Counted from the first letter of the stretch, positions 16,430 to 57,496 are shown. The stretch: 64,000 nucleotides of DNA from an uncultured Bacilli bacterium (GCA_947630105.1 CANRGD010000001.1:5749-69748); one strand, 5' to 3'. Numbers and translations: made by a program. Notes: a model not told the origin generated them from the letters alone.

Positions 16430-16642
16430 TTAATCAAGAATTTCTAAATTATCAATAAGTAAATCACTATAACTAAATGATCTAATTTTAGAATCATTCA
16501 AAGTTATTACAAAAATAGCCGGATAAACACCTGTAATTGTTCCTTCAAACTCTTCAGTTTGATTTCTGCTCCCTTTAAATCTAAAGCTATGTTCTACTCC
16601 CTTATTATCCGAAACATACTTTTTTACCATACTTATTGTCAT
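16430..16642 (-). CDS. veg: Veg protein
   Basis: 70 aa Veg/DUF1021 pattern; adjacent to yabG as in Bacillus. Confidence 0.75.
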   Translation of the reverse strand: MTISMVKKYVSDNKGVEHSFRFKGSRNQTEEFEGTITGVYPAIFVITLNDSKIRSFSYSDLLIDNLEILD

Positions 16643-17160
16643 CTTGGATACCCCACATACATAGTACCATTAGTTATAATTCCACCTATCCCATCACTAC
16701 CATATTTTGTTTTTTCAATTAAACTAATTAAATCAATACTTTGATTTCTATCCGATAAAGCTAATGAGGAAGCTATAATAGCTGGATCTAAAGCATGAAT
16801 ATTAATTCTTTTAGGACTAGAAGCAAAATTAGCTCCTGCTTTAATTAATTCTTCATAATTAGATTGACATGCCCCTGCTATAACAATTAATTTATCTTGA
16901 CTCTTTTCATATTTTCTTATCTCTCTAATAGCCGCAATAAAATTACTAGTATTTTGGTAATTATCCAAATTATTTTTGTCTTTTTTCTTTGAATAAAAAG
17001 CATCATGTCCAGTAATTACTACTATATCAGGACGATATTCTTTTATAAGACCTAACACTTTATTTGACATTTCTACCTCAGCCAAAGTAAGACCATTAGC
17101 TTTAACACCCATACTATCATAAAAACTCATACATCTTTCTAAATATTCTTCATCTCCATC
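16639..17160 (-). CDS. yabG: Sporulation-specific protease YabG, 3' segment (residues after the conserved H-I-D junction). The caller's ORF continues to 17373 by reading through into element DNA
   Basis: The segment DGDEEYLERC...RPDIVVITGHDAF...IVIAGACQSNYEELIKAGANFASSPKRINIHALDP aligns with the C-terminal two-thirds of B. subtilis YabG. The upstream 71 residues of the called ORF have no YabG similarity. Confidence 0.8.
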   Translation of the reverse strand, partial: DGDEEYLERCMSFYDSMGVKANGLTLAEVEMSNKVLGLIKEYRPDIVVITGHDAFYSKKKDKNNLDNYQNTSNFIAAIREIRKYEKSQDKLIVIAGACQSNYEELIKAGANFASSPKRINIHALDPAIIASSLALSDRNQSIDLISLIEKTKYGSDGIGGIITNGTMYVGYPR

Positions 17161-17459
17161 TGCTGACCTTTGATAAGTAAATACGTGTGTTTTAAATAAA
17201 GGCAACTCTTTGCCATCATGTAGATTTAAGTAATTTTTCGGTCTCTCATATAACTTCTTTACTTTTTCATTTATCAACCTTTTTATTGCTTTTCTTTTAT
17301 CCTGTTCTTTTATTTCAGGTTCCTGCGATAACCTTAAATACAGAATAACCTTAGAGTCATTTGTTAGTTCCATAATTTACCTCCCTTTCTAACCTTTTAT
17401 ATATGCGACTTCTTGTGCCACTCTAATATATGATGCATTTTCTCTAATCATACATTCTC

Positions 17460-19022
17460 TTAATACAATTTTATTTTTTTAGGATCTCCTAATCCAAATT
17501 TATATGATATTTTTAATGTATTATCACTATAAACTACAATTTCTTTTATCAAATCTCTAACAACATTATTGATAAATTCATCATGATTTATAAATTTATT
17601 ATATTTATCAATCAATTCTTCTTTTCGTACTTTTTCATTTTTTGACTCCATTATTTCTTTTAGCATTTGCTCGGATTGTTCTTTTTGTTTTACTTCTTCC
17701 TCTTTTCGTTCAATGAACTCATTTAAAGTTATTTCTCCTGTAGTCTTTTTTAAATACAGATTTCTAATATTAGCATTATGAAATTCAATATCTTCCTTTA
17801 AATTAGATATTTTCAAATTGGGTCTTTCACTTTTTAATATATCCTTGGTTGCTTTAGAAACAATCTTTTCTTCATCAACATAATTATCGATGATATCCTT
17901 CAAATTTTCTTTAATTATTGTTCTTAATCGAGAATCTGCTATTTTTCTGTTTTTACACCGTTTTCTATCAACAACTTTCGTACATTCAAAGTAGTATTGT
18001 ACTTTTCTGTCTTTTTTTTGAACTCTACACGCTGTCATTATCCTTCCGCAAGTACCACAAATAACTAAACCACTGAATAAACCACAATAGTCATTTTTTT
18101 CCCTTCTTTTCGTTTGCCTTAATCTACTATTAGCAGCTTCAAATAGCTCATCAGATATAATAATCGGATGACAATTCTCTATTGCTTCTCTATCTCTTAT
18201 AGGTATTACTTGTCTTTGCTTTTGATGATAATCTTGCTTACTTGATTTTCTTTTAACAATTCTTCCCGTATAAGTTTTATTTTTGAGTATTCTATAAACA
18301 ACCTTGTTAGACCAATCATAGTAATATTTTTTATTTTTGCTTGGTGTCATTTTCATATGAATAACAGGTGGTATAACTTTATCCTTATTAAGCTCATCTG
18401 CTACTTCCTGCCTAGTCTTACCACTTGCTACTTCAGTAAAAATCCTTTTTACTACTTTAGCAGCATCTTCATCAATTTCAAGAAACCTTTTATCTTTAAT
18501 TTTCTTAATTTTATATCCATAAGGTGCCATAAATCCAATAAACTGTCCTTCTTCTGTTTTTGCCATTGCTACCTGTTTTCTTTTTACGGATGCCTCTTTA
18601 ACATATCGGTCGTTAATTAAAGAACGTATACCTAACATTACCTCTTGTTCATTATCTTGAGGATTATTACTATCAAAGCAATCATTGATAGCAATATATC
18701 TAACATTATTTTTAGGAAAGTATTCGCTTATATAATATGCAGTTTCTAAAAAGTTTCTTCCTAATCTGGACATATCTTTTGTTATAACTATGCCAATTAA
18801 ACCATTTTCAATATCTTCTTTTAATCTTTCAAATCCAGGTCGATCAAAAGTTATTCCCGAATACCCATCATCAATATATTCTCTATCTACTGTCAAACCC
18901 ATACTTTTAGCATAAGATTTTATAAAACCTAATTGATTATATATGCTAGATGAATATTCACTTTCTTTAACAAAATCTTCTTGAGATAATCGCCCATAGG
19001 AAACAGTTAATCGATTATCCAT
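17460..19022 (-). CDS. Large serine recombinase (resolvase catalytic domain, recombinase domain, zinc ribbon), second of a tandem pair
   Basis: YGRLSQED catalytic-serine motif, DDGYSG, VITKDMSRLGRN, and a C-terminal Cys cluster. The likely start is the ATG at 19022, preceded by a GAGGT RBS, which overlaps the upstream recombinase stop by 8 nt. Confidence 0.85.
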   Translation of the reverse strand: MDNRLTVSYGRLSQEDFVKESEYSSSIYNQLGFIKSYAKSMGLTVDREYIDDGYSGITFDRPGFERLKEDIENGLIGIVITKDMSRLGRNFLETAYYISEYFPKNNVRYIAINDCFDSNNPQDNEQEVMLGIRSLINDRYVKEASVKRKQVAMAKTEEGQFIGFMAPYGYKIKKIKDKRFLEIDEDAAKVVKRIFTEVASGKTRQEVADELNKDKVIPPVIHMKMTPSKNKKYYYDWSNKVVYRILKNKTYTGRIVKRKSSKQDYHQKQRQVIPIRDREAIENCHPIIISDELFEAANSRLRQTKRREKNDYCGLFSGLVICGTCGRIMTACRVQKKDRKVQYYFECTKVVDRKRCKNRKIADSRLRTIIKENLKDIIDNYVDEEKIVSKATKDILKSERPNLKISNLKEDIEFHNANIRNLYLKKTTGEITLNEFIERKEEEVKQKEQSEQMLKEIMESKNEKVRKEELIDKYNKFINHDEFINNVVRDLIKEIVVYSDNTLKISYKFGLGDPKKIKLY

Positions 19023-20604
19023 ATTTAACCTCATTCAAATTAAAATTAAAGAAAATTTTAACTGACTTATCTTCATGTATTTCTATTCTATTAACAAATG
19101 TCCTTAAGACTTCCTTATCGGGATTCTTTGCATTTAAAAATTCATTGATGTATTTCCTTTTCGTTTTTTCATCTGTTAGAATATTTTTGGCTTCACTTAC
19201 TGATATTTCTAAATCTACTATTTTTTCTGCACAATTTTTTCTATCTTTCTCTAGGTCACTTTTTATTCCAAAAAATTCCTCATTAGAAATAATATTATTT
19301 GCTCTATCCTTATATAAATCACTAATAACCTTATCAATAGTTATCATTTTTGATTTATATTCTTTTAAATTAGCTTCATATTCGCTTAAAACATTCAAAT
19401 CACATAATGATGTTTCATATTTTTTTTCTAAAGATTCATTATTAGAATATTTGATTAAGATAGTTCTAATTTCCTTTAAAACAAGTTCATTCAGATCTTC
19501 CTCTCTATAATAATGCATTGTACATACGTGATTACGATATGTTGCATAAGTTCTGCACAGATATATAGGAGTAATTTTTGTAGAGTCGTTCTTTCCTTTT
19601 ACTCGTCGTACTAACATAGTCTTACCACATTCGCCACAAACAACTAATCCTTTTAACAAGTAATCATATTGTCTATGACGTGTATCAGTCTTTCTTTTAG
19701 GAGTATTAACCTTTTCAAAAAGTTCAGTAGAAACAATTTGAGGTAATGCTCCTTTTTTTATTATCCACTTACTTTTTGGTAGTAGTCTTTTCTTTTTTGA
19801 CTTCAAGCTCACCCTTTCATATTTTCCTTGAATCAAAGTTCCTATATATACTTCATTTTCTAATATATGTTTAACAGAAGATGCCTTCCATATATTCGTA
19901 GTCACCGTGACTTTTTTCATTTTTTTACCTCTATAAACGTCAGGAGGACTAATCCCATCGTTTGTTAAAATTCTTGCTATCATCCCTTCCGATTTTCCAC
20001 TATCTTTTAATTCAAAGATTTTTTTAACTATTGGTGCAGCATACTCATCAATAACAAGTAGCTTATTATTTTCCTCTGATCTTTTATAACCAAAAGGAAC
20101 AGAACTACCTACAAATTCTCCTTTTTTCATCATATCGTGTCTAACACTTTTAATTTTTTTTGATATATCTTTTATATACATATCATTGATAACTGCCTTA
20201 AAAGGAATTATATCTTCTACCCCATTAGGAGTTAAAGAATCATAATTATCCAATATAGCAATATATCTAACATTATGTTCTGGAAAATATTTAAACACAT
20301 AATTACCAGTCTCTATAAACTCTCTACCTAATCTAGACATATCCTTTGTAATGACGCAATCAATTACTCCGTTTTCAATGTCATTTATTAGTCGACGAAA
20401 TGCAGGTCTATCAAAATTTCCACCAGAGTATCCATCATCAACATAGTAATCATATATTTCAATATTGTTTTTCAAAGCAAAATCTTTTATAAAGGCTCTT
20501 TGATTTTTGATACTTATACTTTCGTTATTTTTATTGTCATCTTCTATCGAAAGCCTTAAATAACCTCCTGCTTTGTATGTTTTATCAGTTAAGTAATTTA
20601 TCAT
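19015..20604 (-). CDS. Large serine recombinase, first of a tandem pair
   Basis: YLRLSIED, DDGYSGG, VITKDMSRLGRE, CGECG...C zinc ribbon. The start at 20604 is preferred because of its GGGAGGG RBS; the caller's ORF extends to 20637. Confidence 0.85.
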   Translation of the reverse strand: MINYLTDKTYKAGGYLRLSIEDDNKNNESISIKNQRAFIKDFALKNNIEIYDYYVDDGYSGGNFDRPAFRRLINDIENGVIDCVITKDMSRLGREFIETGNYVFKYFPEHNVRYIAILDNYDSLTPNGVEDIIPFKAVINDMYIKDISKKIKSVRHDMMKKGEFVGSSVPFGYKRSEENNKLLVIDEYAAPIVKKIFELKDSGKSEGMIARILTNDGISPPDVYRGKKMKKVTVTTNIWKASSVKHILENEVYIGTLIQGKYERVSLKSKKKRLLPKSKWIIKKGALPQIVSTELFEKVNTPKRKTDTRHRQYDYLLKGLVVCGECGKTMLVRRVKGKNDSTKITPIYLCRTYATYRNHVCTMHYYREEDLNELVLKEIRTILIKYSNNESLEKKYETSLCDLNVLSEYEANLKEYKSKMITIDKVISDLYKDRANNIISNEEFFGIKSDLEKDRKNCAEKIVDLEISVSEAKNILTDEKTKRKYINEFLNAKNPDKEVLRTFVNRIEIHEDKSVKIFFNFNLNEVKYG

Positions 20605-20687
20605 TTTCACCCTCCCTTTATTCCTAACTAACTCCACATAACACAGTCATTATAAATTACTTATCAATTTATTCCCAATGTGCAAAT

Positions 20688-20813
20688 TTATTGATATTTT
20701 GTATTTTGCAGTGTTGACTTCAAATATCTTTCAAATGCCTCTAAAATTTTTTCACTAATTGTTGGAGCATTTTCATCAAAAACACATATAACTAATTCCT
20801 TGCCTTTATCCAT
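20688..20813 (-). CDS. Small 41-aa ORF (MDKGKELVICVFDENAPTISEKILEAFERYLKSTLQNTKYQ) with a strong RBS, just upstream of the recombinase pair
   Basis: AGAGGAGG Shine-Dalgarno 7 nt upstream of the ATG. Not in the supplied ORF track because it is too short. Confidence 0.3.
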   Translation of the reverse strand: MDKGKELVICVFDENAPTISEKILEAFERYLKSTLQNTKYQ

Positions 20814-21031
20814 GGTATTCCTCCTCTTTAAATTTATGAATATTTTCTTAATTAATGAACAAAAAATTCCTTAATATTTTACATAAGTTAAATTTTTTAC
20901 CATTGATTTAAAATGTTATAGTAAAATAAATATTGAAAACAAAAAAGCAAACTCACCTTTATAGAATTTGCTCATTTACTCATTTCCTATTTCTTTTCAA
21001 TAATATCGTATGTAAATTAAATACTATATAA

Positions 21032-21490
21032 TTATTTTAAATTATAACCTAACTTTTCTAATTCCATATTTGCAATATATGATAATTCTTCTTTTGAAAG
21101 TTCATCAATTTCATAAAAATCAGCACCAAGTGAATCATCATTTTGATCATCAATCTTAACATTTCTTTTTATTTGTCCATCATATTCTAACACTTTGTAA
21201 AAAACACCAACATGGTGACCTTTTATTATAACATCTTTATAAGGCCATTCAAAAGTAACCGAATCAGCATCAAATAATTCATGCTTTTTTACTTCTATAC
21301 CAACTTCTTCTACTAACTCTCTTTTTAGTGTATCTTCTGGTCTTTCACAAAATTCAATCGTACCACCAGGCAAATCTAACTTTCCATCATATGGACCACC
21401 AGATTTTTTTATCAATAAAATCTTACCTTCATTTACTATTAAAGCATAAGCTCCCAATTGTTTGTATTCTTTATATTTCTCCACCTTCAT
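21032..21490 (-). CDS. NUDIX hydrolase (element cargo)
   Basis: 152 aa; Nudix box GGTIEFCERPEDTLKRELVEEVGIEV. Confidence 0.8.
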   Translation of the reverse strand: MKVEKYKEYKQLGAYALIVNEGKILLIKKSGGPYDGKLDLPGGTIEFCERPEDTLKRELVEEVGIEVKKHELFDADSVTFEWPYKDVIIKGHHVGVFYKVLEYDGQIKRNVKIDDQNDDSLGADFYEIDELSKEELSYIANMELEKLGYNLK

Positions 21491-21518
21491 CGCTCCTATT
21501 TAGCATCATTATATCATA

Positions 21519-22673
21519 TTATTTCTTTAACACATAACTAAATTTATTTTTATCATTTTTATGATTATCTTCCCAATCAAAACTTACCTCTTGCTCTCTA
21601 CAATAATCACAAAAAGGTATAGGTTTATTTAATTTTTCAATTGCTTCCCAACCATCAGTAATATCATTAATTTTTACATAATCGTCGTCAGAAATTTCAA
21701 AGTTTGTTCCATACTTTTTATTAAGAATATCAATTAATAAAGGATAATAACATTTTGAAATTTTTCCATCTCTTAAAAACCTACAAAATCTGCCATAACA
21801 AATTTCACTAGCAAAATTATTCTCACTTTTCTTTTCTAGGGATAATCTTGTCTGAAATTGTTTTATAACTTCTGGTTCTTTAAAATAATCATCATTAATT
21901 AAGTATTTAATATTATATTTTTTTAATGTTTCTTCAATACTTTGTATTTTTTCATATGTAGGTTTATATAAGGAAATAGAAATCATTATATTATTATCTG
22001 ATATTGTTTGCAATGTTTCATTATCCAATCTATCAATTAACAGACCATTTGTTACAATAACAATTCTAGATTTTTTTAAAATATTTCTAGCTATTTTAAC
22101 TAATTCTGAAATTTTTGGATGGAGAAAAGGTTCTCCCCCTAGGATTCTAAAATTATATAGAAAAAATTTATCAGATACCTTTTTCAAATCTTCTTTAAAT
22201 TTATTTACATCAACATAATTATTATCATAAATATTTGAAAAATGAGCACAACCTTTACAATTTAAATTACATTGATCAACAATATTCATCTCTAAATAAT
22301 TTAAAAAAGGAATATTAAAATCAATCTTTTCAAGGTGTTGATATAAATCTTCTATAGTATTTGGATTAGAAAATAAAATTTCCTCACTTACTACATACAC
22401 ATTCAAATATTCATGCTGTTTTAAATAAGTAATTGTTTCTCCTAATATCATAGGCTTTTTTGTAATAAATATATTACTATCTTTATCTATGTTAAAATAT
22501 TCATCAACACCAATGGTAGGAATATCTCTATAGATATTTTGTGGCAACCTTTTATTATCATTAGAAATTTTTAAAAAACCATCAATTGGAATATGAAATT
22601 TTTCTAATATTTCGGCTGTTTCAGCTGCAAAAGGTCCTGTACCAAAAATGAAATTATTTGCCATACTTATCAC
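21519..22673 (-). CDS. Radical SAM enzyme with N-terminal extension and C-terminal Cys-rich (SPASM/twitch-like) region (element cargo)
   Basis: 384 aa; CNLNCKGCAH CxxxCxxC cluster; additional C-terminal cysteines CYGRFCRF, CYYP, CDYC. Confidence 0.8.
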   Translation of the reverse strand: MISMANNFIFGTGPFAAETAEILEKFHIPIDGFLKISNDNKRLPQNIYRDIPTIGVDEYFNIDKDSNIFITKKPMILGETITYLKQHEYLNVYVVSEEILFSNPNTIEDLYQHLEKIDFNIPFLNYLEMNIVDQCNLNCKGCAHFSNIYDNNYVDVNKFKEDLKKVSDKFFLYNFRILGGEPFLHPKISELVKIARNILKKSRIVIVTNGLLIDRLDNETLQTISDNNIMISISLYKPTYEKIQSIEETLKKYNIKYLINDDYFKEPEVIKQFQTRLSLEKKSENNFASEICYGRFCRFLRDGKISKCYYPLLIDILNKKYGTNFEISDDDYVKINDITDGWEAIEKLNKPIPFCDYCREQEVSFDWEDNHKNDKNKFSYVLKK

Positions 22674-23658
22674 CTGCTTTCTGATAAACCTTAGGATGCT
22701 CTAAAGAAGCAATTCTAAAATTTAAATTTTCATACATCCAATCAAATTTTCCATATTGTTTCAATTCACAATCAACAATCATCTTTAATATTACGTACAT
22801 TCTATAAATTTCTATTCTATTTAATTCTGATGAATTAAGTGATGATTTATTAAAACCCTTCAAAAAATGAGAACTCATTTTACCATCAATAGTATGAAAA
22901 TAAAATGTCATTAACTCATCACAATAATACAAATCTGTAAAATCAACTATACCAGAAATATTACCTTCATTAACAAGAACATTGCCATCCCATATATCTG
23001 TATGACTTAAACATAAATTTGTTATATTATTAAGATTTTCCTTATTTGATGATATTACATTTATAATTCTTTCATACATATTTTTTCCTAAATCCATATT
23101 TTTAGTAGATGCATCATTTAATAATAATTGAAATAAATTTAATACAAACTCAAAATTATCATTAAATCTTTTCTCAGGCTGACTAGGTAGAAAAAATTCA
23201 TTACCTTTTAACATACATATTTTAGAGCTAAAAAAGCCAATCTGATATTCTATCTTTTCAATTTCTTTTGAAGTTAACTTTTCCTTGCATTGTAAAAAAT
23301 TATTTCCTGGTATATAACTCATAAAAAAGTAAGGCTCTTTACAAATATTACTAGTATCACTATATCTTAATAATCTAGGAGATGGAAAATCTATTGTTTC
23401 CATTTTCTTTAACATTTCGGATTCCCACCATAAAATATTTCTATCTACGGTTATCATTTTACTTTCATCTTTAGGTGCTATTTTAAGAACGACTTTATTA
23501 CCATCATCATCTATTAAATATACTGCATTTTTCATTCCACCACTTAATTTCATAATATTTAATTTATTGGATTTTTTTTGAAATGATTCTTCATACATTA
23601 ATTTAATTATTTCTTCTGATTGATAATTTTTTACGGAAGAATTATTATTTGTTTCCAT
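22654..23658 (-). CDS. APH/choline-kinase-family phosphotransferase (element cargo)
   Basis: 334 aa; catalytic loop LSHTDIWDGNVLV and IVDFTD (DFG-like). Overlaps its neighbours on both sides, consistent with an operon. Confidence 0.65.
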   Translation of the reverse strand: METNNNSSVKNYQSEEIIKLMYEESFQKKSNKLNIMKLSGGMKNAVYLIDDDGNKVVLKIAPKDESKMITVDRNILWWESEMLKKMETIDFPSPRLLRYSDTSNICKEPYFFMSYIPGNNFLQCKEKLTSKEIEKIEYQIGFFSSKICMLKGNEFFLPSQPEKRFNDNFEFVLNLFQLLLNDASTKNMDLGKNMYERIINVISSNKENLNNITNLCLSHTDIWDGNVLVNEGNISGIVDFTDLYYCDELMTFYFHTIDGKMSSHFLKGFNKSSLNSSELNRIEIYRMYVILKMIVDCELKQYGKFDWMYENLNFRIASLEHPKVYQKAGDKYGK

Positions 23659-25591
23659 TTTTGGCTCCTTGATATCCTTTTATGTATTTTTTACAAACTT
23701 CGTTAGTATATTGGAATTCATCATTATCTACTGTTAAATGAAAAATATTATCATAAGCATAATTAGATATTTTATGTTTATAATACTTTCTAATAAACGA
23801 TTTTAAATTAGCAACTTCCTCAAACATAAAACCTTTCATTTTATTAAAATACATATAATTTGATACTTTTACCAGCATATTTAATATTACTATTGTATTA
23901 CTATCATATTTATCAATCAAAGTACTTGCTTTTATATATGGAATTCCTTCAAATTCATGATTATCTTCATAAATTGCATTTATAAACTCACTATACTTAT
24001 CCTTTAAATCAATTGGTATACATTCTTGTATTGATACTTTTTCACCAATAAGGCCTACTGCTTCTTTCATCATATTCTCATCTAAAGAATTCCATAAAAT
24101 ACCTATACAAGGTAATTCTATTGATGGCATTTTATTCTTATCTATTTTTCCATCTTCGATTAAAGTATTTATAATTGATAATACTTCATCTAATTTTCTA
24201 AACTTCTTAACATTATTTGCTGTTAATAGTAAATTCATTAAATTATTTATCACATCCTGTAATTCTTTTTTAAATTCATCTTTTTCTAAAATACCTTCTT
24301 TGTGGTCTCTCATATAATTCCTAATAATATGAACCAAACTATTATATAATATTTTTTCAGCAGCATCTCTATACTCTTCCCCTTGAGATAGAACTTCTTC
24401 ATATTTTTCTTTTCCCCAATCTTGAAGTGTAAATAATTCAGATGATATTTTATTACCTGTTAATGATACAGATTTTCTTTTAACATAGTGATAAAATGGT
24501 ATATTAACAAGTGCAAATGATTTATCCTCCTTACACAATCTGTAAATATAATCAGAATCTTCTTTAAAACAAGTTTTATCAAATCTAATATTTCTAATAG
24601 AAGAAAGTTTATATAACTTATCCCAAGCAGGAATCAATATTGTTGCATCCGAATATGCATTGATTAAATCTAAATGACCCTCTACTAATTTAACTCCTTT
24701 TTGTTCACAACTTACATCTTTAATATCACCATTTTTCATATGAATATAAAAACTACTTTCACATACATCTGCATTTGTTTTTTCCGCGGTTTTCATTAGG
24801 GTTTCAATCATAGAATTTTCAACATAATCATCAGAATCAAAAAAACATATATATTCTCCTGTTGCTAACTCTATTCCTTTATTTCTAGTCTCAGCAAGTC
24901 CACAATTTTGCTGATGAACAACTTTTATTCTACTATCCGCCTCGGCAAGTAAATTACATATTTTTAATGAATCATCTGTTGAGCCATCATCAATTAAAAT
25001 TATTTCTAAATTTCTATAAGTTTGATTTGTTATACTTTTAATACAACGTACCAAATAATTAGATGTGTTATATATAGGTACTACAACAGTAACTTTTTTA
25101 TCATTATAAATATTATAGTCAATATATTCTTGTAATTTATCTTTCCAATCACTATCAGTATCATTTATTTTTAAATGATAAAAAGAATCATTATAAGTTG
25201 ACTCAATACTTTTAACTCTATATTTTTGTAATAATTCCATTCCATTATCTAAACAGCTATGATACTGATTAGAATTTGCTTTTATTACTAAATTACAATT
25301 ACTAAAAATATATGAATCTTCTAAATTAGAATAATTAATAACAACTATATCATTCTTCCTAAAATGAGCTAAATTTGCCATTATTTCATCATCCACTTTA
25401 TTTCTAATTTTCATAAAATATAAAATCTTTGAATTATAATTCATATTTTTTTCTTTATCGTAATAATTATCCTGTTCTAAAATTTTTTTTAGTATTTGAT
25501 CTACATCTAAATACTTAAATGAATAATTTTCAATTAAATACTCTGCAATTTCCTTTCCTACTCTATTATTACCGGTAATTCCTACAATCAC
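23645..25591 (-). CDS. Three-part protein: N-terminal P-loop nucleotide-kinase-like domain, central family-2 glycosyltransferase domain, C-terminal domain of unknown function (element cargo); GTG start
   Basis: 648 aa. GITGNNRVGKE P-loop. VTVVVPIYNTSNYL...LIDDGSTDDS with FFDSDDYV DxD motif, typical of GT2. GTG start with a GGGGGTG RBS. Confidence 0.7.
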   Translation of the reverse strand: MIVGITGNNRVGKEIAEYLIENYSFKYLDVDQILKKILEQDNYYDKEKNMNYNSKILYFMKIRNKVDDEIMANLAHFRKNDIVVINYSNLEDSYIFSNCNLVIKANSNQYHSCLDNGMELLQKYRVKSIESTYNDSFYHLKINDTDSDWKDKLQEYIDYNIYNDKKVTVVVPIYNTSNYLVRCIKSITNQTYRNLEIILIDDGSTDDSLKICNLLAEADSRIKVVHQQNCGLAETRNKGIELATGEYICFFDSDDYVENSMIETLMKTAEKTNADVCESSFYIHMKNGDIKDVSCEQKGVKLVEGHLDLINAYSDATILIPAWDKLYKLSSIRNIRFDKTCFKEDSDYIYRLCKEDKSFALVNIPFYHYVKRKSVSLTGNKISSELFTLQDWGKEKYEEVLSQGEEYRDAAEKILYNSLVHIIRNYMRDHKEGILEKDEFKKELQDVINNLMNLLLTANNVKKFRKLDEVLSIINTLIEDGKIDKNKMPSIELPCIGILWNSLDENMMKEAVGLIGEKVSIQECIPIDLKDKYSEFINAIYEDNHEFEGIPYIKASTLIDKYDSNTIVILNMLVKVSNYMYFNKMKGFMFEEVANLKSFIRKYYKHKISNYAYDNIFHLTVDNDEFQYTNEVCKKYIKGYQGAKNGNK

Positions 25592-25618
25592 TGATAAACA
25601 CCCCCAAAATTATCAAAT

Positions 25619-25648
25619 ATACTAGCATATTCCCCCATATTTTGTCAA
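25619..25648 (-). promoter_or_regulatory. Candidate sigma-A-type promoter for the cargo operon (TTGACA-18 nt-TAGTAT)
   Basis: Read on the minus strand: ttgacaaaatatgggggaatatgctagtatat, about 25 nt upstream of the GTG start. Confidence 0.3.
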
Positions 25649-26085
25649 TTAAATGTCCAAGGAATCACAGAGTTCATTCTTATATTAAATGTTTTAATTA
25701 AAGTGTTTTATTTTTACTAGATTCTTATTCACAATCTTTTATAAATTTTTTTATATAGTCTATACATCTTAGAGAAATATATCTTTCTTTAACATCTGCT
25801 ATCCAAATTACTTTACAATTAGATATATTTTCAACCTTTCATTCTAAAAAAAGATATGTATAGCAAAAAAAAGAACTTAAATTTATTAAATTCTTGTTAT
25901 GTTTTATTAGTTAAGAATATATCAATTTTATTTACTTAAGAAATGTCACCCCTCCTTTTGAGTGAAGAATCTTTTAAATTTTTTACCTATTTTTTGGCAT
26001 TTTTGAGATTTTTTATGAATTTTAAAGTTTAGTATTTCCCTATTTTATAAGGGTTTGCGAGTGGTTATTTAATTTAATGTCAGCG

Positions 26086-26357
26086 TCAATATGTAATATT
26101 TTTCCTGGTATATAAAAATATTTATTTCTATCCATTTCTAAACTTCTTAAATTACTTTCTATAATTTGTTTATCCTCAGCCTTTCCTTCTGTATTAGCAA
26201 TCACTAAATCGTTAATATCACTATCCGCATAAAGTCTTAAATCAACACCTTTTAACAAAACACTATTTTGATTAATTTCAATGATTTTAAATAAAATATC
26301 ATGTTGATGAGAAATTCTAGTAACATAATCACCTATATTAAATTGCAATAACATCAT
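26086..26357 (-). CDS. yabG: Sporulation-specific protease YabG, 5' segment (N-terminal ~91 residues). The caller's ORF runs on to a stop at 26040 inside the element
   Basis: MMLLQFNIGDYVTRISHQHDILFKIIEINQ...LRLYADSDINDLV...YFYIPGKILHID aligns with the B. subtilis YabG N-terminus (MQFQIGDMVARKSYQMDVLFRIIGIEQ...RLIADSDFSDLV...HMPGKVLHLDGD). Confidence 0.8.
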
Positions 26358-27243: not shown

Positions 27244-27882
27244 CTAGTTATACCTTTTTTCTTTCTTTCTCAAAACTAAAGTCGCTTTTATTAAATCGAA
27301 TAAAACAACAATTCCAATTGGTATTAAAATACTTATTAAAAACCCAGAAGGTTTAGATACAAATTTTTGAATATAACCAATTTTTGGAATTTTTAAAATA
27401 ACTTTTCCATAAATATCTTCTTGTTTAACAGTTGAATTATCTCTACTCTCATTATTATCACCTTTTGTTATAAATTCATAATTCCCATTTTCTAAAAATT
27501 GTTTATCGACAACTCTATGAGTTATAGTAAGTCCTGAATATTCATTATCAGTAGATAAAAAAGTTATAATATCTCCTTCTTTTATACTATTTTTATTAAC
27601 TCTTTTAACTATAACTGCATCATTAATCTTAATTGTTGGTACCATACTTGGAGATACAATTATATAAGCACTAAGTAATGGAGATTTATAATTACCTGTT
27701 TTAACATTAAAATATAAATCACCAAAATAAAAAAGTAAAAATAAACATAAAATTATCATTAAACTAAGTATTGCTAATAAAAAAGCCTTTGTTAAAAAAT
27801 AAGTCCAAAAAAAAGTTTTTTGTAAAAAAGTCATTTCTACTTCATCTAAATTTACTCTAATTTGTTTTGCCATTGAACTCAT
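27244..27882 (-). CDS. sipW: SipW-type (ER/archaeal-type) signal peptidase I
   Basis: IVSPSMVPTIKINDAVIV (SxSMxP...DAIIV) and the GDNN motif characteristic of SipW. Confidence 0.7.
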   Translation of the reverse strand: MSSMAKQIRVNLDEVEMTFLQKTFFWTYFLTKAFLLAILSLMIILCLFLLFYFGDLYFNVKTGNYKSPLLSAYIIVSPSMVPTIKINDAVIVKRVNKNSIKEGDIITFLSTDNEYSGLTITHRVVDKQFLENGNYEFITKGDNNESRDNSTVKQEDIYGKVILKIPKIGYIQKFVSKPSGFLISILIPIGIVVLFDLIKATLVLRKKEKRYN

Positions 27883-27974
27883 TTTATCAAACCTTTCTTA
27901 TAATCATTATAATACTAAATTTAAGAAAAAAATATCTTAAAAATATAAAAAGCAAATGCTTTACACATTTGCTT

Positions 27975-28577
27975 TTAACTAGCTTTACCTGTAACTGAAA
28001 CAGAAACTTTATAATTATTTAATGCCCCCGTAGCAGTTACTGCTTTGTCAGATAACCATAATCTTAATCTATAATTATCAACGCTATCTTTATTTTTAGT
28101 TTGTTTTACTAAAACCATAGCACCTTTTTTAGTTCCTAATTTTGTAGTTTTATCTAATTTTTTATAAGCTGAAGGTTCCAAAATTGTAACATAACTTCCA
28201 CTTTTTTGTTGTTCTAAAAAAATTCTAATATCTTCATCTTTAATAGATGATTCATTTTCAACTTTTGTAATTGCTAATTCATAATCAATATTAGACGCTT
28301 CATCTAAAGTAGTTTTTACACTAAAATCAAAATATTGATTCAAACCATCTAATTTTTTACCATCAGCATCTAATAAAGGCATTGCATTAAGCAAAGAAAA
28401 AGTATTATCATTACCACTATATAATAAAGCTACATCACCACCAGCTAAATTTTCATTCACTTTACCTTGATTTTTGTCAAACATCGTAAAAAGTCCTATT
28501 AATATAACAGTAAATAAAATACAAACTAATAAGATAAATATTACAAATTTTTTAGATACTTTATTGTTTTCTTTCAT
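27975..28577 (-). CDS. Membrane-anchored/secreted protein, paralogue of the upstream ORF; candidate SipW substrate
   Basis: 200 aa; N-terminal signal-anchor; shared C-terminal motif NYRLRLWLSD. Confidence 0.4.
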   Translation of the reverse strand: MKENNKVSKKFVIFILLVCILFTVILIGLFTMFDKNQGKVNENLAGGDVALLYSGNDNTFSLLNAMPLLDADGKKLDGLNQYFDFSVKTTLDEASNIDYELAITKVENESSIKDEDIRIFLEQQKSGSYVTILEPSAYKKLDKTTKLGTKKGAMVLVKQTKNKDSVDNYRLRLWLSDKAVTATGALNNYKVSVSVTGKAS

Positions 28578-28583
28578 ATTTAA

Positions 28584-29135
28584 TCAAACCTCTCTAACTT
28601 TTATTTTAAAAGAAAAACTTTGTTGTTCCCTAAGTATAATGTAAGAATCTGAAACCCATACTCTTAAATTAAAATACTGTTTTTCCCCTTTTTTTATTAC
28701 TCCACTATATAAAATTTTATTTCCTGGTAAACTAAGTGAAACTTTCAAATCATTATAACTTGGGATAATATTAGTATTAAAACCATTTACCGGATTATCA
28801 TTATTATCTGTTAAATAAAGCTTTAAATAATTTGAATTTAATTCATTACTAGAATCTTCCTTAACTAAATAAACTTCATATTTGGTAGTTTTATTTGAAC
28901 TTAAAGTAAATTTTAAATGGCCTAACACGTTATCATCTACACTTTCTAAATCAGTTGTTTTACCTATTTCATCAGAAATAGGCAAACGACCTACCATTTT
29001 TATTTTATTACTGCCATCAAATTTAATTTTTATTTTTCCTGAAGTTTTATTAAAAATTTTTAATACCCCAATAACACTTAAAAATATAATAATTACTATT
29101 ACCAAAATAGTTATTTTCTTATAATTTTTACTCAT
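28584..29135 (-). CDS. Membrane-anchored/secreted protein, paralogue of the downstream ORF; candidate SipW substrate
   Basis: 183 aa; N-terminal signal-anchor; shared C-terminal motif QYFNLRVWVSD. Confidence 0.4.
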   Translation of the reverse strand: MSKNYKKITILVIVIIIFLSVIGVLKIFNKTSGKIKIKFDGSNKIKMVGRLPISDEIGKTTDLESVDDNVLGHLKFTLSSNKTTKYEVYLVKEDSSNELNSNYLKLYLTDNNDNPVNGFNTNIIPSYNDLKVSLSLPGNKILYSGVIKKGEKQYFNLRVWVSDSYIILREQQSFSFKIKVREV

Positions 29136-44861: not shown

Positions 44862-47300
44862 TTATTCTTCTACTTCTTTTTCATCTTTCTTTACTATAGT
44901 AACAGTAGAAACAAGTTGATTATCTTTCAGATTAATTAATCTTACACCTTGAGTTGCTCTCTTTAAAGTAGATATTTGATCTAAAGGCATTTTCATAAAT
45001 ACACCACTATTAGTTACCAATATAACATCTAACTCTTTTTCCACATCCCCTTTAAATGTTTTTAAACTAACCATAATACCATTTTTTTCGGTAATATTAT
45101 AAGCTTTTACTCCTTTGCTACCTCTATGAGTTAATCTATATTCATCAATCAAGCTCTTTTTTCCATAACCATTTTCAGTAACAATCAATACATATTGACC
45201 AGAATCAATAACCTCAGCACCTACCACAATACCATCTTCTAAATCAATACCCTTAACTCCAGAACTACTTCTACCCATAGCTCTAACTTCATTCTCATCA
45301 AATCTAACCATTCGACCATTACTAGAACCAATAATAATTTCATTTTTTCCACAGGTCTTTCTTACACTAATTAGCTCATCATTTTCTTTTAAAACAATAG
45401 CAATTTTACCACTTTTTCTTATGTTATCAAATTCCTCAATAGAAGTTCTTTTTACTATTCCATTTTTAGTAGCAAACATTAAATATTTTGTAAAATTATC
45501 ATCAGTTTTCAATTCTACTATCGAACTAATGTTTTCATTTTTATCTAAAGGTAACAAATTAATTATTGGTAATCCTTTAGATTGCCGAGAAAATTCAGGA
45601 ACCTCATATCCCTTCATTCTATATACCCTTCCTAAATTAGAGAAGAATAATATATAGTCATGAGTTTTCATAGAAACTAAATGTTCCACAAAATCCTCTT
45701 CATTAGTAGACATTCCCTTAATTCCAACTCCACCCCTATTTTGAGTACGATATGTATCACTACGTAATCTCTTTATATATCCATTATTTGTTAAAGTAAT
45801 TATTATATCCTCTTCAGGTATTAAAGATTCATCTTCAATATATTCAATAGCTGTCATATCAATATTTGTTCTTCTTTCATCAGCATATTTTGACTTAATT
45901 TCTAAAAGCTCATTTTTTATAACTTCTAAAACTTTTTGATCACTAGCTAAAATTGCTTTCAAATCAGCAATAGTCTTTAACAAATCAGCTAATTCATTTT
46001 CAATTTTTTCTCTTTCTAAACCAGTTAAACGACGTAATCTCATCTCTAAAATAGCATTAGCTTGAATTTCAGTTAATTTAAAATTACTCATCAAACCAGC
46101 TCGAGCTTCTTCATCAGACTCCGAACCACGAATTAATTTAATAACAGCATCAATATTATCTAAAGCAATTTTTAATCCTTCTAAAATATGAACACGTTTT
46201 TCAGCAACATCTAAATCAAATTTTGTTCTTCTAATAATAACTTCTTTTTGAAATTCAACATATTTAGAAATTATATCCTTTAGACCTAAAGTTTTAGGAA
46301 CACCTTGATCCAACATTAAAAATATAATTCCATAAGAAGTTTGAAAGGCAGTATGCTTATATAACTTATTCAAAACAACTTGAGCATTCGCATCCTTCTT
46401 TAAAGTTATCGTAATTTTTATACCATTTTTTAAATCAGAATGATAATCAGCAATTCCCTCAATTACCTTATTATGAACAAGTTCTGCAACTTTATTTTTT
46501 AATTCTAAAGTATTAACACCATATGGAACTTCATCAATAATAATATATTGCTTACCATTTTTTTCCTCAATTTGAGCTTTACTTCGAATTGTTATTGAAC
46601 CACGACCAGTTTCATATGCTTTTCTTATACCACTATTTCCAAGGATAATAGCTCCCGTAGGAAAATCAGGACCCTTTATATATTTCATTAATCCATCTAA
46701 ATCAATATCAGGATTATCAATATAAGCAACACATCCATCAATAACTTCCCCTAAATTATGGGGAGGAATATTAGTAGCCATACCAACCGCAATACCAGTA
46801 GTTCCATTAACTAAAATATTTGGAAATCTAGAAGGTAAAACCGTTGGCTCTTTCTCACTTTCATCAAAATTTGGAATAAAATCAACAGTATCTTTATTAA
46901 TATTTCTAAGTAATTCCAAAGAAATTTTTGATAATCTAGACTCAGTATATCTCATTGCAGCTGCACCATAACCTTCTATATTACCAAAATTTCCATGTCC
47001 ATCTATCAACATATACCTATAAGAAAAATCTTGAGCCATTCTTACCATAGCTTCATAAATAGAAGAATCACCATGTGGGTGAAAATTACCCATAACCTCT
47101 CCTACTGTTTTGGCACTTTTTCTATGTGGTTTATCAGGTGTATATCCCGATACAAACATTGAATATAAAATTCTTCGATGAACTGGTTTTAAACCATCCC
47201 TTAAATCCGGAATAGCACGTGCTGTAATTACACTCATAGAATAATCTAAGAATGAATCCTGTACCTCTTTAACAATATTATTTTTTTCTAATCTATCCAT
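44862..47300 (-). CDS. gyrA: DNA gyrase subunit A
   Basis: 812 aa; catalytic Tyr region, C-terminal beta-pinwheel repeats. Confidence 0.95.
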
Positions 47301-47311
47301 CCTTAAACCTC

Positions 47312-49237
47312 CTAAACATCCAAATTAGCATAAGTTGCATTTTGCTCAATAAATTCTCTTCTTGGTTCTACTTCTTCACCCATTAATTTAGAGAAAATTT
47401 CATCTGCAGATATTGCATCTTCAACTGTAATTTTTCTTAAAACCCTTTGATTTATATCCATAGTAGTCTCATTCAACTCTTCCGCGTCCATCTCTCCTAG
47501 TCCTTTCATACGTGCTATTTCATAACGTACATTAGGTCCTAATGTTGCCAAATATTCATCTCTTTCAGCGTCATCCAAAACATATTTTCTTGTTTTTCCA
47601 TGAGTAATTCTATATAAAGGAGGTTGAGCAGCATATACATGTCCAGCTTCAACTATAGGCTTAAAAAATCTATAAAATAAAGTTAATAATAACACTCTAA
47701 TATGACTTCCATCAACATCAGCATCTGTCATAATAATAATTTTATGATAACGTAATTTTGATAAATCAAATTCTTCCCCAATACCAGTACCAAAAGCTGT
47801 AATAATAGTCCTAATTTCCTCATTAGATAAAGCCCTATCAAGTCTAGCTTTTTCCACATTTAATATTTTTCCTCGTAAAGGCAAAATAGCTTGAGTCATA
47901 CTATCTCGACCTTTAATTGCTGATCCTCCAGCAGAATCTCCTTCGACCAAAAAAATTTCACTTACAGTAGCATCTTTACTTTTACAATCAGATAATTTTC
48001 CATAAAAATTAGTAATATCTAAATCTCCTTTTCTTCTAGTAAGTTCACGAGCTTTTTTAGCCGCTACTCTTGCTCTACTAGCAGTCATAGATTTATCAAT
48101 TATAATTTTTGCTTGATCAGGATTTTCCATTAAAAATCTTTCTAAAGCTTCAGAAAATATTTTATCAGAAATAGTTCTTACTTCACTATTACCAAGTTTA
48201 GTTTTAGTTTGTCCTTCAAATTGAGGATTAGGATGTTTAATAGATATAATCATAGTTATACCTTCTCTAACATCATCACCAGTTAGAGGATCATCCTTTT
48301 CTTTTAACAATCCAGCATTTGTAGCATATTTATTTAAAATTCTAGTTAACGCCCTTCTTACACCATCTTCATGCGTACCACCTTCAGGTGTAGTAATATT
48401 ATTAACAAAAGAATAAATACTTGAATTATATGTTTCATTATATTGAAAAGCTACTTCAACTTTTATATCTTTATCTTCTCCATCTACATATACAATTGTT
48501 TCATGAATAGGATTTTTATTTTTATTCAACATCTGAACATACTCTATTATACCGCCTTCATAATAAAAAGAATCTTTTTTATCAGCTTCTCTATCATCAT
48601 AAAGACTTATTCTTAATCCTTTATTTAAAAAAGCTAATTCCTTTAATCTTGTTTTTAAAATTTCGTAATCATATACTGTAGTTTCTGTAAAAATATCATC
48701 ATCTGGAAGAAAATGAACAGTTGTACCAGTTCTATTAACATCACATTTATCAATAATTTTCAAATTATCTTCTGGATGACCACCTTTACTAAACCTCTGA
48801 TAATATACATTTCCATTTTTATAAACTTTTACTTCAAGCCAATCACTAAGAGCATTAACAACACTAGCTCCAACTCCATGTAATCCTCCAGATACTTTGT
48901 ATCCTCCTCCACCAAATTTTCCACCAGCATGCAAAACTGTATAAACTGTTTCTACTGTACTTTTACCAGTTTTTGGATGAATATCTACAGGAATTCCTCG
49001 TCCATCATCTTTTACTGTAATACTATTATCTTTACCAACAGTAACCTCAATATGTGTACAATACCCAGCCAAAGCCTCATCAATCGCATTATCAACAATT
49101 TCCCATACTAAATGATGAAGTCCTCTAGAACTAGTAGTACCTATGTACATTCCAGGTCTTTTTCTAACAGCTTCTAATCCTTCTAAAACTTGAATTGCTG
49201 AAGAATCATAAACTTTTTCTATTTTTTCATCGTTCAT
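47312..49237 (-). CDS. gyrB: DNA gyrase subunit B
   Basis: 641 aa; GHKL ATPase, Toprim motifs ([15 protein letters not shown]). Confidence 0.95.
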
Positions 49238-49241
49238 AACT

Positions 49242-50354
49242 TTACCTACTTTCTATCTCACCATTTTTAACTTCATAAATACATGCATTTTTTAAATTAC
49301 TTTTTCTGATATTTTTTAAATCTGTAGTTGTAATTATTGATTGAATTTCAAATTTATTTATTAAATTAAGTAATTTATTTCTTTTTGTTATATCAAGTTC
49401 ACTAAACATATCATCTAACAATAATAAAGGATAATCACCACACATATTTTTAAAAATATTAATTTCAGCTAATTTAAAAGCTATAATTGCTAATTTTTGC
49501 TGTCCTTGAGAACCATAAAATTTTAAATCATTACTTTTAAATTCAAAATAAAAATCATCTCTATGTGGACCATATATAGTCATACCATAATTTAATTCTT
49601 TTAAATAGTTTTTTTTAAATTTATGTTTCATTTTCTTTCGTATATTTTCATAATCATAATTATCTAATTCAATATTAGGTTGATAAATTATCTTTAATCC
49701 CTTTTCAAGGGCTATTTCATTAAAATAAAAATCAATATTTTCATTTATTAAATCAATATACTCTTTTCTTTTTTGATAAATAATAATAGCTTTTTCAATT
49801 AATTTATCAGTTATTATATCTAAATAATTAGTATCAGCAATACTATTATTAAAAAGGATTTTTAAATATTCATTTCTAGTTTTTAAAAGTTTATTATATT
49901 GATTATAAGTATTTAAATAACTTCTTGATAATTGGGATAATTGAATATTCAATAAATTTCTTCTAACATTAGGAGAACTTTTTATTATTTCTAAATCATC
50001 AGGAGTAAAAATAATAACATTCAAATTAGAAATATAATCAGCTATTTTTTTAATATTAGTATTATTTATTTTTAACTTTTTAGTTTCTTCATCTATTTCT
50101 ATTTCTAATTTAGAAATAATATTATTTCTTTTAATAACACCATTTATTCTACACTTTTTTTTATCAAATTTTATTATATTTGGACTATTACCTACTCTAT
50201 GAGATTTAGTTAATGCTAAAATTGTAATAGATTCTAATAAATTAGTTTTCCCTTGCGCATTATTTCCAATAAAAATATTCATTCCATTTCCGAATTTTAT
50301 ATTAATATTAGAATAATTTCTAAAATTAACCAGATTCAGCTTAGTAATTTTCAT
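49242..50354 (-). CDS. recF: DNA replication and repair protein RecF
   Basis: 370 aa; Walker [13 protein letters not shown]-like signature. Confidence 0.9.
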
Positions 50355-50481
50355 TTAAATCCCGTTAAAAGACACATAAACCTCACCTATTCCCTAATTG
50401 ATATTTCTATATATACATATCAATTATAACACAAACAAGCCTAAAAAGCACAAAAAAATAGTCTTTTAGACTATTTTTAAT

Positions 50482-50928
50482 TTATAGATTTTTTCTTTTT
50501 CGTAAAACAAAATCTAATCTTGAAGCTCTAGCAACTTGATTTTCAACAGTTCTATAAGAACAAGGTACAATTAATTCAATATTATTATCAAAAATAATCT
50601 TAGTATTAAAAGAATCTATTTTTATAAACTTTTTCAATCTTTTTAATGAAATCCATACACAATCTTCTGCTAATGGAGAAGTCGTTGGAAAGACAATTAA
50701 ATTATTAGTATCTTCTATTAATATAGGAACTTTATACTCAGCTCCTAAAATATCCCTTGCCCCCTCTTTTCTACCATTATAAGAACTACCAAAATATTTA
50801 CAACTTTCTTCCATAATTTTAAATGGAGACTCTTCAATAATATACCTCTCTTCATCCTCATAGACTAAACTTGTAGCATTTTCATTAGGTACAATTGCTA
50901 ATGTACCATTACTAATTTCATATTTCAT
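50482..50928 (-). CDS. comK: ComK-family transcription factor homologue
   Basis: 148 aa; YEISNGTLAIVPNE, SCKYFGSSYNGRKEGA, KVPILIEDTNNLIVFPTTS, CVWISLKRLKKF and LIVPCSYRTVENQVARASRL align block-by-block with B. subtilis ComK. Confidence 0.7.
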   Translation of the reverse strand: MKYEISNGTLAIVPNENATSLVYEDEERYIIEESPFKIMEESCKYFGSSYNGRKEGARDILGAEYKVPILIEDTNNLIVFPTTSPLAEDCVWISLKRLKKFIKIDSFNTKIIFDNNIELIVPCSYRTVENQVARASRLDFVLRKRKNL

Positions 50929-51078
50929 ATTTTTCCCCCTCTGAAAGCGAAATTACACGCTTTCACTTCTAATATTATCAAATTTAAAAGTCTAAATTTG
51001 TCGATTTTTGACATATTTATTAACTTTCTATATAAATTTTACTCAAAAAAATATATTTTCCATAAAAAAAGAACTTTT

Positions 51079-52206: not shown

Positions 52207-52337
52207 TATAATTCCTTCTTTCTTTTTTTATATTTTTATTATTACTGTGGAAAAAGTTAATAACTTAATATTTTTATATATTTCAAAGATTTAACTAAAA
52301 ATTAATTTGTGGAAAATTATTATTAAATTAATTATTT
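52207..52337. other. dnaA-dnaN intergenic DnaA-box cluster (second oriC module)
   Basis: Two TGTGGAAAA (=TTTTCCACA) boxes at 52247..52255 and 52309..52317 in a highly AT-rich spacer. Confidence 0.5.
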
Positions 52338-54150: not shown

Positions 54151-54198
54151 AACCGCTGATAAAACAGTGGTTTTTTACTCTTAAAAAGAAGGGATATT

Positions 54199-54534: not shown

Positions 54535-54535
54535 T

Positions 54536-57485: not shown

Positions 57486-57496
57486 GAAGTGACAAA

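Follow-up and report, generated by a model that had tools for sequence, protein, structure and literature searches.

Elements that interrupt a sporulation gene and can be removed from it by site-specific recombination are known from several bacteria. The skin element in sigK and SPbeta in spsM both have a late mother-cell sporulation gene as their target, are of phage origin and encode single recombinases of the SpoIVCA/SprA type. The gin element of Bacillus cereus ATCC 10987 cuts the sporulation gene gerE without being a prophage (Abe et al., 2017, PMC5595907), and yin, a prophage in yabG of Clostridium botulinum V73, was shown by polymerase chain reaction (PCR) to be excised and circularised (Douillard et al., 2023, PMC10747680). 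Here we describe an element that splits yabG in a DNA stretch of 64,000 nt from an uncultured Bacilli bacterium (GCA_947630105.1 CANRGD010000001.1:5749-69748); the whole stretch is called the window, and all positions are counted from its first letter. The element is an integrated, non-viral genomic island of a large family whose members always sit at yabG codon 91, within the sequence ...HID|GDxxYL.... Towards the complete proposal, that this codon-91 island is excised by its own recombinases in a manner tied to sporulation, we lean, if only slightly.

The window element resembles yin in its target gene, in encoding large serine recombinases with Resolvase, Recombinase and Zn-ribbon domains, and in that excision restores yabG, as seen by PCR and Sanger sequencing for yin and in silico for the window element. 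Whereas yin is a predicted functional prophage from a single isolate, with one recombinase and a 14-bp flanking repeat, the window element measures 8.9 kb, lacks phage genes, carries two tandem TnpX-like recombinases and the remnant of a third, has a 2-bp crossover and is one of a family that is spread over many uncultured gut Bacilli. A first-pass annotation of this DNA had taken yabG for a target not yet reported, a claim superseded by the publication of yin in December 2023 (PMC10747680). According to that paper, in turn, public data contained no further element disrupting yabG (PMC10747680), a statement that the present family contradicts. The annotation had also likened the locus to skin and SPbeta. 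This likeness holds for the architecture, with a mother-cell gene cut, a recombinase at the edge and a precise in-frame join, but not for the recombinases, which are closest to TnpX, nor for the non-phage make-up. As in skin, the edge-located recombinase lies beside the 3' fragment of the target gene, and related elements share their recombination genes only (bioRxiv 10.1101/2022.02.25.481979). The target genes differ, and developmental excision is proven for skin and SPbeta while it is proposed for the window element.

In kind, gin is the closest analogue of the window element. Both are non-prophage elements that cut a sporulation gene, and both carry multiple serine recombinase genes (three in gin, two and a remnant here). 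The directionality factor of gin, GirX, which has 42 aa and no known motif, can be likened, by size and description alone, to a family of small open reading frames (ORFs) of 41-44 aa without Pfam match in the window element and its relatives. gin differs in its length of 28.6 kb, in its gerE target and in its 9-bp junction consensus. Moreover, GirC and GirX suffice in gin, girAB lying in a separate silent operon, whereas the window recombinase genes abut, co-diverge and stand directly behind the small ORF.

All genes of the yabG region lie on the minus strand of the window. The 5' fragment (26086..26357) supplies codons 1-90 and the GA of codon 91, and a tblastn alignment of the reconstituted YabG covers residues 1-93 there. 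Its frame stays open beyond the junction until a stop within the element, at 26040, and the resulting ORF (26040..26357, 105 aa) matches the Pfam family Peptidase_U57 over profile positions 1-66 (E = 6e-18, 65.5 bits). The 3' fragment (16639..17160) supplies residues 91-263 and the stop, contains the GHD and GACQS motifs and aligns by tblastn over residues 91-263 at 100%; the 244-aa ORF that includes it (16639..17373) matches Peptidase_U57 over profile positions 56-280 (E = 5e-71, 239.7 bits) and also TIGR02855 (spore_yabG). Joined in silico, the halves read ...GKILHID|GDEEYLERC... and encode a 263-aa protein that covers the Peptidase_U57 profile from end to end (1-280 of 280, 308.6 bits, E = 5e-92). 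The first-pass annotation had described yabG as split by an element of about 8.9 kb, with breakpoints at 26086 and 17160 and with two large serine recombinases and a cargo operon between the halves, and had expected the fragments to align as contiguous parts of one YabG and to join into a full-length ORF. Each of these statements was confirmed: the element measures 8,927 bp, the Pfam halves 1-66 and 56-280 belong to one protein, the breakpoints agree with the mapped GA crossover, and Pfam identifies both recombinases and the cargo. One point needs amendment. The 3' part is indeed located at 16639..17160, but the 244-aa ORF comprises more than the YabG C-terminus, the 72 residues at its start being contributed by the element. 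An intact second yabG, which would have spoken against a developmental element, was not found by tblastn with the reconstituted YabG within the 64-kb window.

Junction mapping, together with the blastn modularity relative to sister elements, places the element at 17159..26085 on the minus strand, 8,927 bp when one GA copy is counted. When the window junctions were aligned with 80 relatives, the sole sequence common to both proved to be the GA dinucleotide of codon 91. In attL (...ACATATTGACGCTGACATT...) this crossover dinucleotide lies, on the gene strand, at 26086..26087, as given by the comparison of attL with attR and with attB of the relatives; in attR (...GGTCAGCAGATGGAGATGAA...) it lies at 17159..17160, the same position (residue 91) as in all sister loci. 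A repeat search of the element revealed no long terminal direct repeats. The two gene flanks, when joined, read ...ACATATTGATGGAGATGAAG..., and the predicted attB, AATATTACATATT-GA-TGGAGATGAAGAATATTTAG, matches yabG of the 80 element-free relatives. The corresponding circle junction reads ...GGTCAGCAGACGCTGACATT..., with a predicted attP of ...AAAGGTCAGCA-GA-CGCTGACATT... and innermost arms CTTATCAAAGGTCAGCA-GA-CGCTGACATTAAATTAAATAA. Around its central GA, the predicted attP reads as an imperfect inverted repeat (perfect core GTCAGC/GCTGAC, 12 of 18 positions symmetric), the hallmark of sites used by large serine recombinases. The locus combines the recombinase domains, the central-dinucleotide crossover and the recreation of attB upon joining of the flanks that characterise elements of large serine recombinases, and we consider site-specific, reversible integration by such an enzyme very probable.

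Both ends of the element are conserved. The left end (25806..26085, minus strand) comprises the attP right arm, CGCTGACATTAAATTAAATAAC..., and a terminator-like hairpin at 25946..25965; these roughly 280 bp are shared with sister locus L082 at ~76% identity although the cargo differs, and the attP right-arm sequence itself is identical in L082 and in an independent assembly of the window locus, L001. The element-side arm GTTACTTA(A/T)CA..TCAGCA|GA is kept across the sister elements and diverged in the relative whose recombinase is 44% identical.

The predicted unoccupied state, which the first-pass annotation had proposed to look for in related genomes, is represented there. The joined protein, used as query against species-representative genomes, found 80 loci, and in each of them yabG is uninterrupted, with residues 1/4-263 covered at 65-86% identity. 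The sequence ...GKILHIDGDxxYL... can be read across the insertion site in 80/80 of them, and in 80/80 veg follows directly downstream of yabG, as it does in the window. There, yabG retains its classical neighbourhood, with rsmA upstream and veg, spoVG, yabP and yabQ downstream. An assembly artefact is excluded, because L001, which is 99.96% identical over 5,164 bp including the left junction, and sister elements in many further assemblies carry the same junction. L001 was also the only locus returned by an exact-protein look-up with RsmA, and exact look-ups with the 244-aa ORF and with the 540-aa GTG-start form of the second recombinase gave no record.

The two recombinases, Rec1 (17460..19034, 524 aa) and Rec2 (19015..20604, 529 aa from its ATG, the ORF reaching a GTG at 20637), are both encoded on the minus strand, and each contains the Pfam domains Resolvase (PF00239), Recombinase (PF07508) and Zn_ribbon_recom (PF13408). 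They are 34% identical to each other. The Rec1 gene overlaps the end of Rec2, stop included, by 20 nt; of the intact recombinase genes it lies closest to attR, from which its own end is 300 bp away. For both proteins the best PDB match is TnpX (2mhc, catalytic domain only), with E = 3.7e-28 for Rec1 and 5e-26 for Rec2. SPbeta SprA (YokA) matches Rec2 far more weakly (E = 2e-14), and NCBIfam matches to CcrB, CcrC and XisF stay far below their cut-offs (76-111 bits against 900 for CcrB/CcrC). Residues Y13, R15 and S17 of Rec1 are invariant in 13 homologs, and the YLRLS/YxRLS catalytic motif of Rec2 is kept in 7/7 elements. The decayed recombinases that would point to a dead insertion, as considered in the first-pass annotation, were not seen for this pair: in seven of seven elements (window, L082, L085, L087, L089, L090, L091) Rec1 and Rec2 are intact, abut or overlap, and diverge in step (44-90% identity for Rec1, 46-95% for Rec2). 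A truncation of Rec2 in L087 was only apparent and was dismissed as a gene-calling artefact.

Two further classes of mobile element invite comparison. With Tn4451/Tn4453 the window element has in common the TnpX catalytic domain as closest solved homolog and a 2-bp crossover or target (PMC3158075). Its 41-aa ORF likewise has a homolog that accompanies a TnpX-like recombinase, TnpV and a relaxase in one unit. Tn4451 and Tn4453 differ in carrying a relaxase (TnpZ) and TnpV beside one recombinase, whereas no relaxase and no TnpV was found among the ORFs of the window element, which has two recombinases and a strict single site. The dinucleotide used by TnpX is reportedly also GA. SCC elements with ccrAB likewise combine an adjacent pair of large serine recombinases, variable cargo and site-specific insertion into a conserved chromosomal gene; they differ in that insertion occurs at the 3' end of rlmH and preserves the gene, and in that the window proteins score 76 and 111 bits against the CcrB cut-off of 900.

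Homologs of Rec1 form more than 100 clusters at 44-90% identity, all of them from metagenome-assembled genomes (MAGs) or metagenomes. Genomic contexts were analysed for homologs at 90, 74, 64, 58, 53 and 44% identity, and for an IMG/VR fragment at 70% that came from a scan of viral contigs. In every context the right-hand order is Rec2, Rec1 and the yabG 3' fragment, followed by veg except on the truncated contig L172. The yabG fragment begins at residue 91 in the 7 sister loci that could be scored by tblastn; in L090 the tblastn alignment extends to residue 81, but the junction sequence places the break at the same codon, and L172 has the same junction by sequence. Recombinases at a greater distance (~30% identity) never adjoin yabG, and a profile search with Rec1 in metagenome_contigs was dominated by generic recombinases (about 30% identity), not one of which lies beside yabG.

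These elements share a common layout, consisting of a short conserved left end, swappable cargo and a right-hand module of promoter box, 41-aa ORF, Rec2, Rec1, recombinase remnant and attR. In blastn, homology to the window sets in at 20856-20866 (L082, L085, L089, L172) or about 20800 (L087, L091), at or a little upstream of the small-ORF start (20813), and continues to attR. The boundaries of the modules agree from element to element, whereas the cargo is wholly different. Compared with the window YabG, that of the L082 host reaches identities of only 49% in its N-terminal and 61% in its C-terminal part, yet Rec1 and Rec2 are 90% and 95% identical and the att arms nearly so, which points to recent horizontal transfer. 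In line with this, recombinase identity is uncorrelated with host YabG identity across seven elements. One variant with RHS cargo was met in 745 blocks of the assembly collection, on contigs of up to 1.27 Mb, always with the same split yabG.

Upstream of the recombinases lies a conserved acidic ORF of 41 aa with a strong ribosome-binding site (20688..20813, minus strand). ORFs of 41-44 aa of the same family precede Rec2 in 6 elements; none was identified in L090. The family evolves under purifying selection, with a ratio of nonsynonymous to synonymous substitution rates (dN/dS) of about 0.1, and the isoelectric points range from 4.4 to 6.1. Among 160 homologs, none has a Pfam domain or a functional name, and neither TnpW nor another Pfam family matched the 41-aa ORF even at E 10. 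In L255/L256 (8208..11912), a 60-aa homolog is flanked by a 591-aa TnpX-like recombinase on one side and by TnpV and a relaxase on the other. This Tn4451-like unit lies in a genomic context unrelated to yabG; the small-ORF family is thus associated with serine recombinases beyond the yabG elements. By analogy with GirX, we regard the 41-aa protein as a candidate recombination directionality or accessory factor.

The recombination module starts with a promoter box at 20829..20866 (minus strand), TTCATTAA-N13-CATAAATTTA, about 15 nt upstream of the 41-aa ORF and a candidate for the sigma-E/K class. The box is kept in 6 elements while the flanking sequence diverges, and it is of the CATA type, resembling the -10 boxes that 80 yabG and 67 yabP promoters of the lineage have in common. 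The window yabG is itself preceded by a conserved box, AC-N17-CATAAACTT. Sigma-K dependence of yabG is established in B. subtilis only. A promoter matrix trained on the 67 yabP promoters (training median 22.6 bits) ranked yabP of the window 1st and yabG 2nd; a matrix trained on yabG promoters was dominated by the T-rich spacer. Across L002-L081, in the region of about 110 nt upstream of yabG and of yabP, strongly conserved promoter-like boxes stand directly before the ribosome-binding sites. The yabG box of the lineage reads ..CTATTTC-T-rich-CATAnAnTTTA and the yabP box GCATAAA/GTTCTAA-N13-CATATTATTT, and these boxes could serve to define the sigma-K and sigma-E regulons in uncultured Bacilli.

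How, then, might such an island behave in its host? In the mechanism that we propose, Rec1, possibly together with Rec2, would recombine attL with attR and release the island as a circle, so that the yabG halves would be rejoined in frame. Excision would take place in the mother cell during sporulation, the 41-aa protein, made from the sigma-E/K-class promoter, may serve as directionality or accessory factor, and the forespore chromosome would keep the island. It is from the comparison of sequences that we infer that the island is excised at all, when and in which cell this happens, what the 41-aa ORF does and how Rec1 and Rec2 share the work. A developmental role is favoured by the interruption of a late mother-cell gene in the middle of its coding sequence, for which the element supplies no replacement, by strict target specificity across a deep family, and by the integrity of the split halves, prevalent carriers included: all split yabG 3' fragments examined have zero stops and keep the GHD and GACQS motifs. 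Further points on this side are the skin-type layout, the conserved box before the small ORF and the different, vegetative-type promoter candidate of the cargo operon. For yin, restored yabG increases as cultures sporulate, excision being growth-phase-dependent (PMC10747680). A fuller version of the proposal takes yabG codon 91, in uncultured spore-forming gut Bacilli, as a dedicated landing pad of cargo-swapping islands with polymorphic toxins and immunity genes, enzymes for surface glycans or giant proteases, which a CcrAB-like pair of TnpX-type recombinases would excise from the mother cell, with a GirX-like factor under a mother-cell sigma setting the direction; the island would be carried in the germ line only, and YabG would be gated by DNA rearrangement. 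This version we put forward tentatively, as somewhat less likely than not.

Several observations weigh against a link to sporulation, and with both sides considered we judge sporulation-linked excision as such to be evenly balanced. Within species, split yabG copies differ by 0-7 nucleotides, too few for a test of selection. No conspecific empty site was found in a collection of 5.8 billion proteins, where the best intact YabG is 87% identical, and the retrieved sets likewise held no close intact partner for the split YabG fragments of other hosts. The attP junction sequence gave 0 matches in metagenome_contigs and IMG/VR, a result that is uninformative because most carriers come from ENA/Logan assemblies, which these two collections may not hold. 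With the yabP-trained matrix, the site upstream of the 41-aa ORF scores 2.8 bits against the training median and ranks 61 of 127,934, while the sites of sister elements rank 2, 7, 16, 98 and 770 of about 43,000. The ability of the host to sporulate is itself a prediction. B. subtilis yabG mutants still form spores, with an altered coat (Takamatsu 2000, as cited in PMC10868615), and carriers could simply tolerate a dead yabG, given that the gene is dispensable for spore formation in model organisms. Finally, to judge by the title of a reference in PMC3158075, TnpX needs no other transposon-encoded protein to transpose, so by analogy a directionality factor under sporulation control would not be required.

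TnpX, the nearest relative of the recombinases, excises without help from an accessory factor, and the island could accordingly be a plain integrative (mobilisable) element of the Tn4451/TnpX type, with yabG inactivated and its loss tolerated, and with excision that is rare or constitutive, serves transfer only and is unlinked to sporulation. We take this to be possible, if somewhat doubtful. TnpX is the closest solved structure for both recombinases and shares the 2-bp crossover (PMC3158075), a member of the 41-aa ORF family accompanies a recombinase, TnpV and a relaxase in a Tn4451-like unit, movement of the elements between hosts is evident, and their cargo of toxins, immunity genes, toxin-antitoxin genes and glycosyltransferases is typical for islands; the weak promoter score and the zero excision products in the attP scans of metagenome_contigs and IMG/VR fit as well. 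However, most integrative elements preserve their target gene (PMC7192596), whereas here a coding sequence is cut midway without a replacement, the fusion ORF that might be taken for one being an accident present in two elements only. Specificity for a single mother-cell gene persists across 44-90% recombinase divergence, while TnpX is said to be loose in its choice of target. The window element also lacks a relaxase, and all examined split halves are intact, even in very prevalent carrier species. Moreover, the sole yabG-inserted element that has been studied experimentally excises in a growth-phase-dependent manner (PMC10747680).

A fixed, immobile insertion, that is, a dead yabG pseudogene with a relic element unable to excise, would agree with the decay of the third recombinase gene to 72 codons, with the lack of a recorded empty site in the same species and with the failure to find attP in the scanned collections. 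It is very unlikely in view of Rec1, Rec2 and the 41-aa ORF, which are intact and under purifying selection in the compared elements, of the intact and symmetric att half-sites, of the two intact yabG halves, and of the near-identical module in L082, whose host has a YabG only 49-61% identical and which attests to recent mobility. The third recombinase gene (17161..17373, minus strand) contains the attP left arm ...CTTATCAAAGGTCAGCA and is fused in frame to the yabG 3' fragment. Its decay can be followed through the family, from pseudogene pieces with a Resolvase domain (191, 109 and 76 aa in L085, 131 aa in L089) to the 72 codons of the window. In most elements (L085, L087, L089) a TAA stop ends it 12 nt before the crossover; the window and L082 have TAT instead, and this change creates the 244-aa fusion ORF in these two only. 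That the fusion ORF, with a ribosome-binding site and an ATG of its own, expresses the YabG catalytic domain while the island is integrated is hardly credible, even though the ribosome-binding site is good, profile positions 56-280 are covered and the same ORF exists in L082. The TAA in L085, L087 and L089 precludes a fusion there, L090 and L091 have no called fusion (their 3' fragments being called as 161 and 165 aa), the first 72 residues derive from a recombinase gene, and the N-terminal domain of YabG (residues 1-90) is missing. A terminator-like hairpin (17201..17214), conserved in L082 and L085, lies inside the ORF, and for this reason we regard the fusion (16639..17373) as accidental. 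As a functional alternative YabG it was rejected on account of the stop before the crossover in sister elements.

The family has implications beyond the single locus. A literature search found no paper describing this family of yabG islands, and what is new is a wide family with one insertion codon, paired TnpX-type recombinases, modular cargo and uncultured gut hosts. Its distribution suggests that integration into yabG is recurrent and lineage-wide among uncultured gut Bacilli. Non-viral intervening elements with multiple recombinases, of the gin kind, would be extended to a second sporulation gene and to uncultured hosts, and surveys of sporulation capacity in MAGs that score gene presence may count a split yabG as absent. 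The family also supplies diverged recombinase pairs with exactly mapped attB and attP and with a candidate directionality factor of 41 aa. If excision is developmental, toxin, immunity and glycan cargo would have germline-restricted carriage in gut spore-formers. Should the landing-pad version be true, 'regulated gene integrity' at yabG would be common in prevalent gut bacteria rather than confined to a single strain, and the islands would provide a set of natural recombinase, attB and attP triples.

The cargo of the window element consists of four genes on the minus strand. They encode a GT2 glycosyltransferase of 648 aa with an N-terminal P-loop-like region (23645..25591; Pfam Glycos_transf_2, E = 1e-35, and a GtrB-like PHROG match), a phosphotransferase resembling APH and fructosamine kinases (22654..23658; Pfam APH, E = 1.5e-13), a radical SAM enzyme (21519..22673; Pfam Radical_SAM, E = 6.5e-13) and a NUDIX hydrolase (21032..21490; Pfam NUDIX, E = 1.2e-15). 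A candidate promoter of the cargo operon, sigma-A-like, lies at 25619..25648 on the same strand (TTGACA-18-TGcTAGTAT); it is the best site of a consensus scan and a consensus match only, and the sigma-70 scan showed no enrichment over shuffled sequences (74 sites, 79.7 expected). Searches with Pfam and PHROGs gave integrases and metabolic cargo, and no phage structural or lysis genes in the element. The radical SAM protein matches the PADLOC pVip models in the radical SAM core only (E = 1e-13), the NUDIX protein matches the candidate system PDC-S07, and the GT2 protein matches phage GtrB-like families of O-antigen conversion. An assignment of the cargo as a defence system was discarded, the PADLOC matches being at domain level only.

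Sister elements, each seen for 10 kb upstream with left ends lying more than 10 kb away, carry other cargo. The variants include an AMP-binding enzyme with a hybrid histidine kinase, immunity-type genes of the SUKH/SMI1/DUF1963 kind with PemK and a sigma-like protein, RHS/YD toxins, and an M26 peptidase of 3,882 aa, which bears a dockerin. Conflict-type cargo was noted in L085, L087, L089, L090, L091 and L252-L254, comprising RHS/YD-repeat toxins, SUKH/SMI1/DUF1963/YezG-like immunity proteins, PemK and sigma-70 region-4 proteins.

The closest genomes are gut MAGs (rabbit, human, goat and others) that carry the labels uncultured Bacilli, Tenericutes, 'Mycoplasma sp. CAG:877' or Candidatus Faecimonas, and the host belongs to an uncultured low-GC gut lineage of Bacilli known from MAGs, not to Clostridium. 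Among the proteins encoded in the window are YabP (above the curated cut-off), SpoVG, a SpoVT-like protein of full length and, as a weak match, YabQ, so that the host has at least part of the sporulation gene set; uncultured Bacilli orders of this kind are predicted to include spore-formers (PMC10868615). In the same survey of uncultured Bacilli orders, yabG presence, by gene annotation, was reduced in ML615J-28 (PMC10868615). On the rsmA side away from yabG, positions 27244..29135 (minus strand) hold a gene for a SipW-like type I signal peptidase and two small-protein ORFs with hydrophobic N-termini, which might form a TasA/camelysin-like operon. The window further includes the region of the replication origin (44862..63974), with dnaA, dnaN, a recF-like gene, gyrB and gyrA on the minus strand and, after a strand switch near 54.2 kb, rnpA, yidC, jag, mnmE, mnmG, rsmG and parA/parB-like genes, these gene identities being deduced from ORF sizes and gene order.

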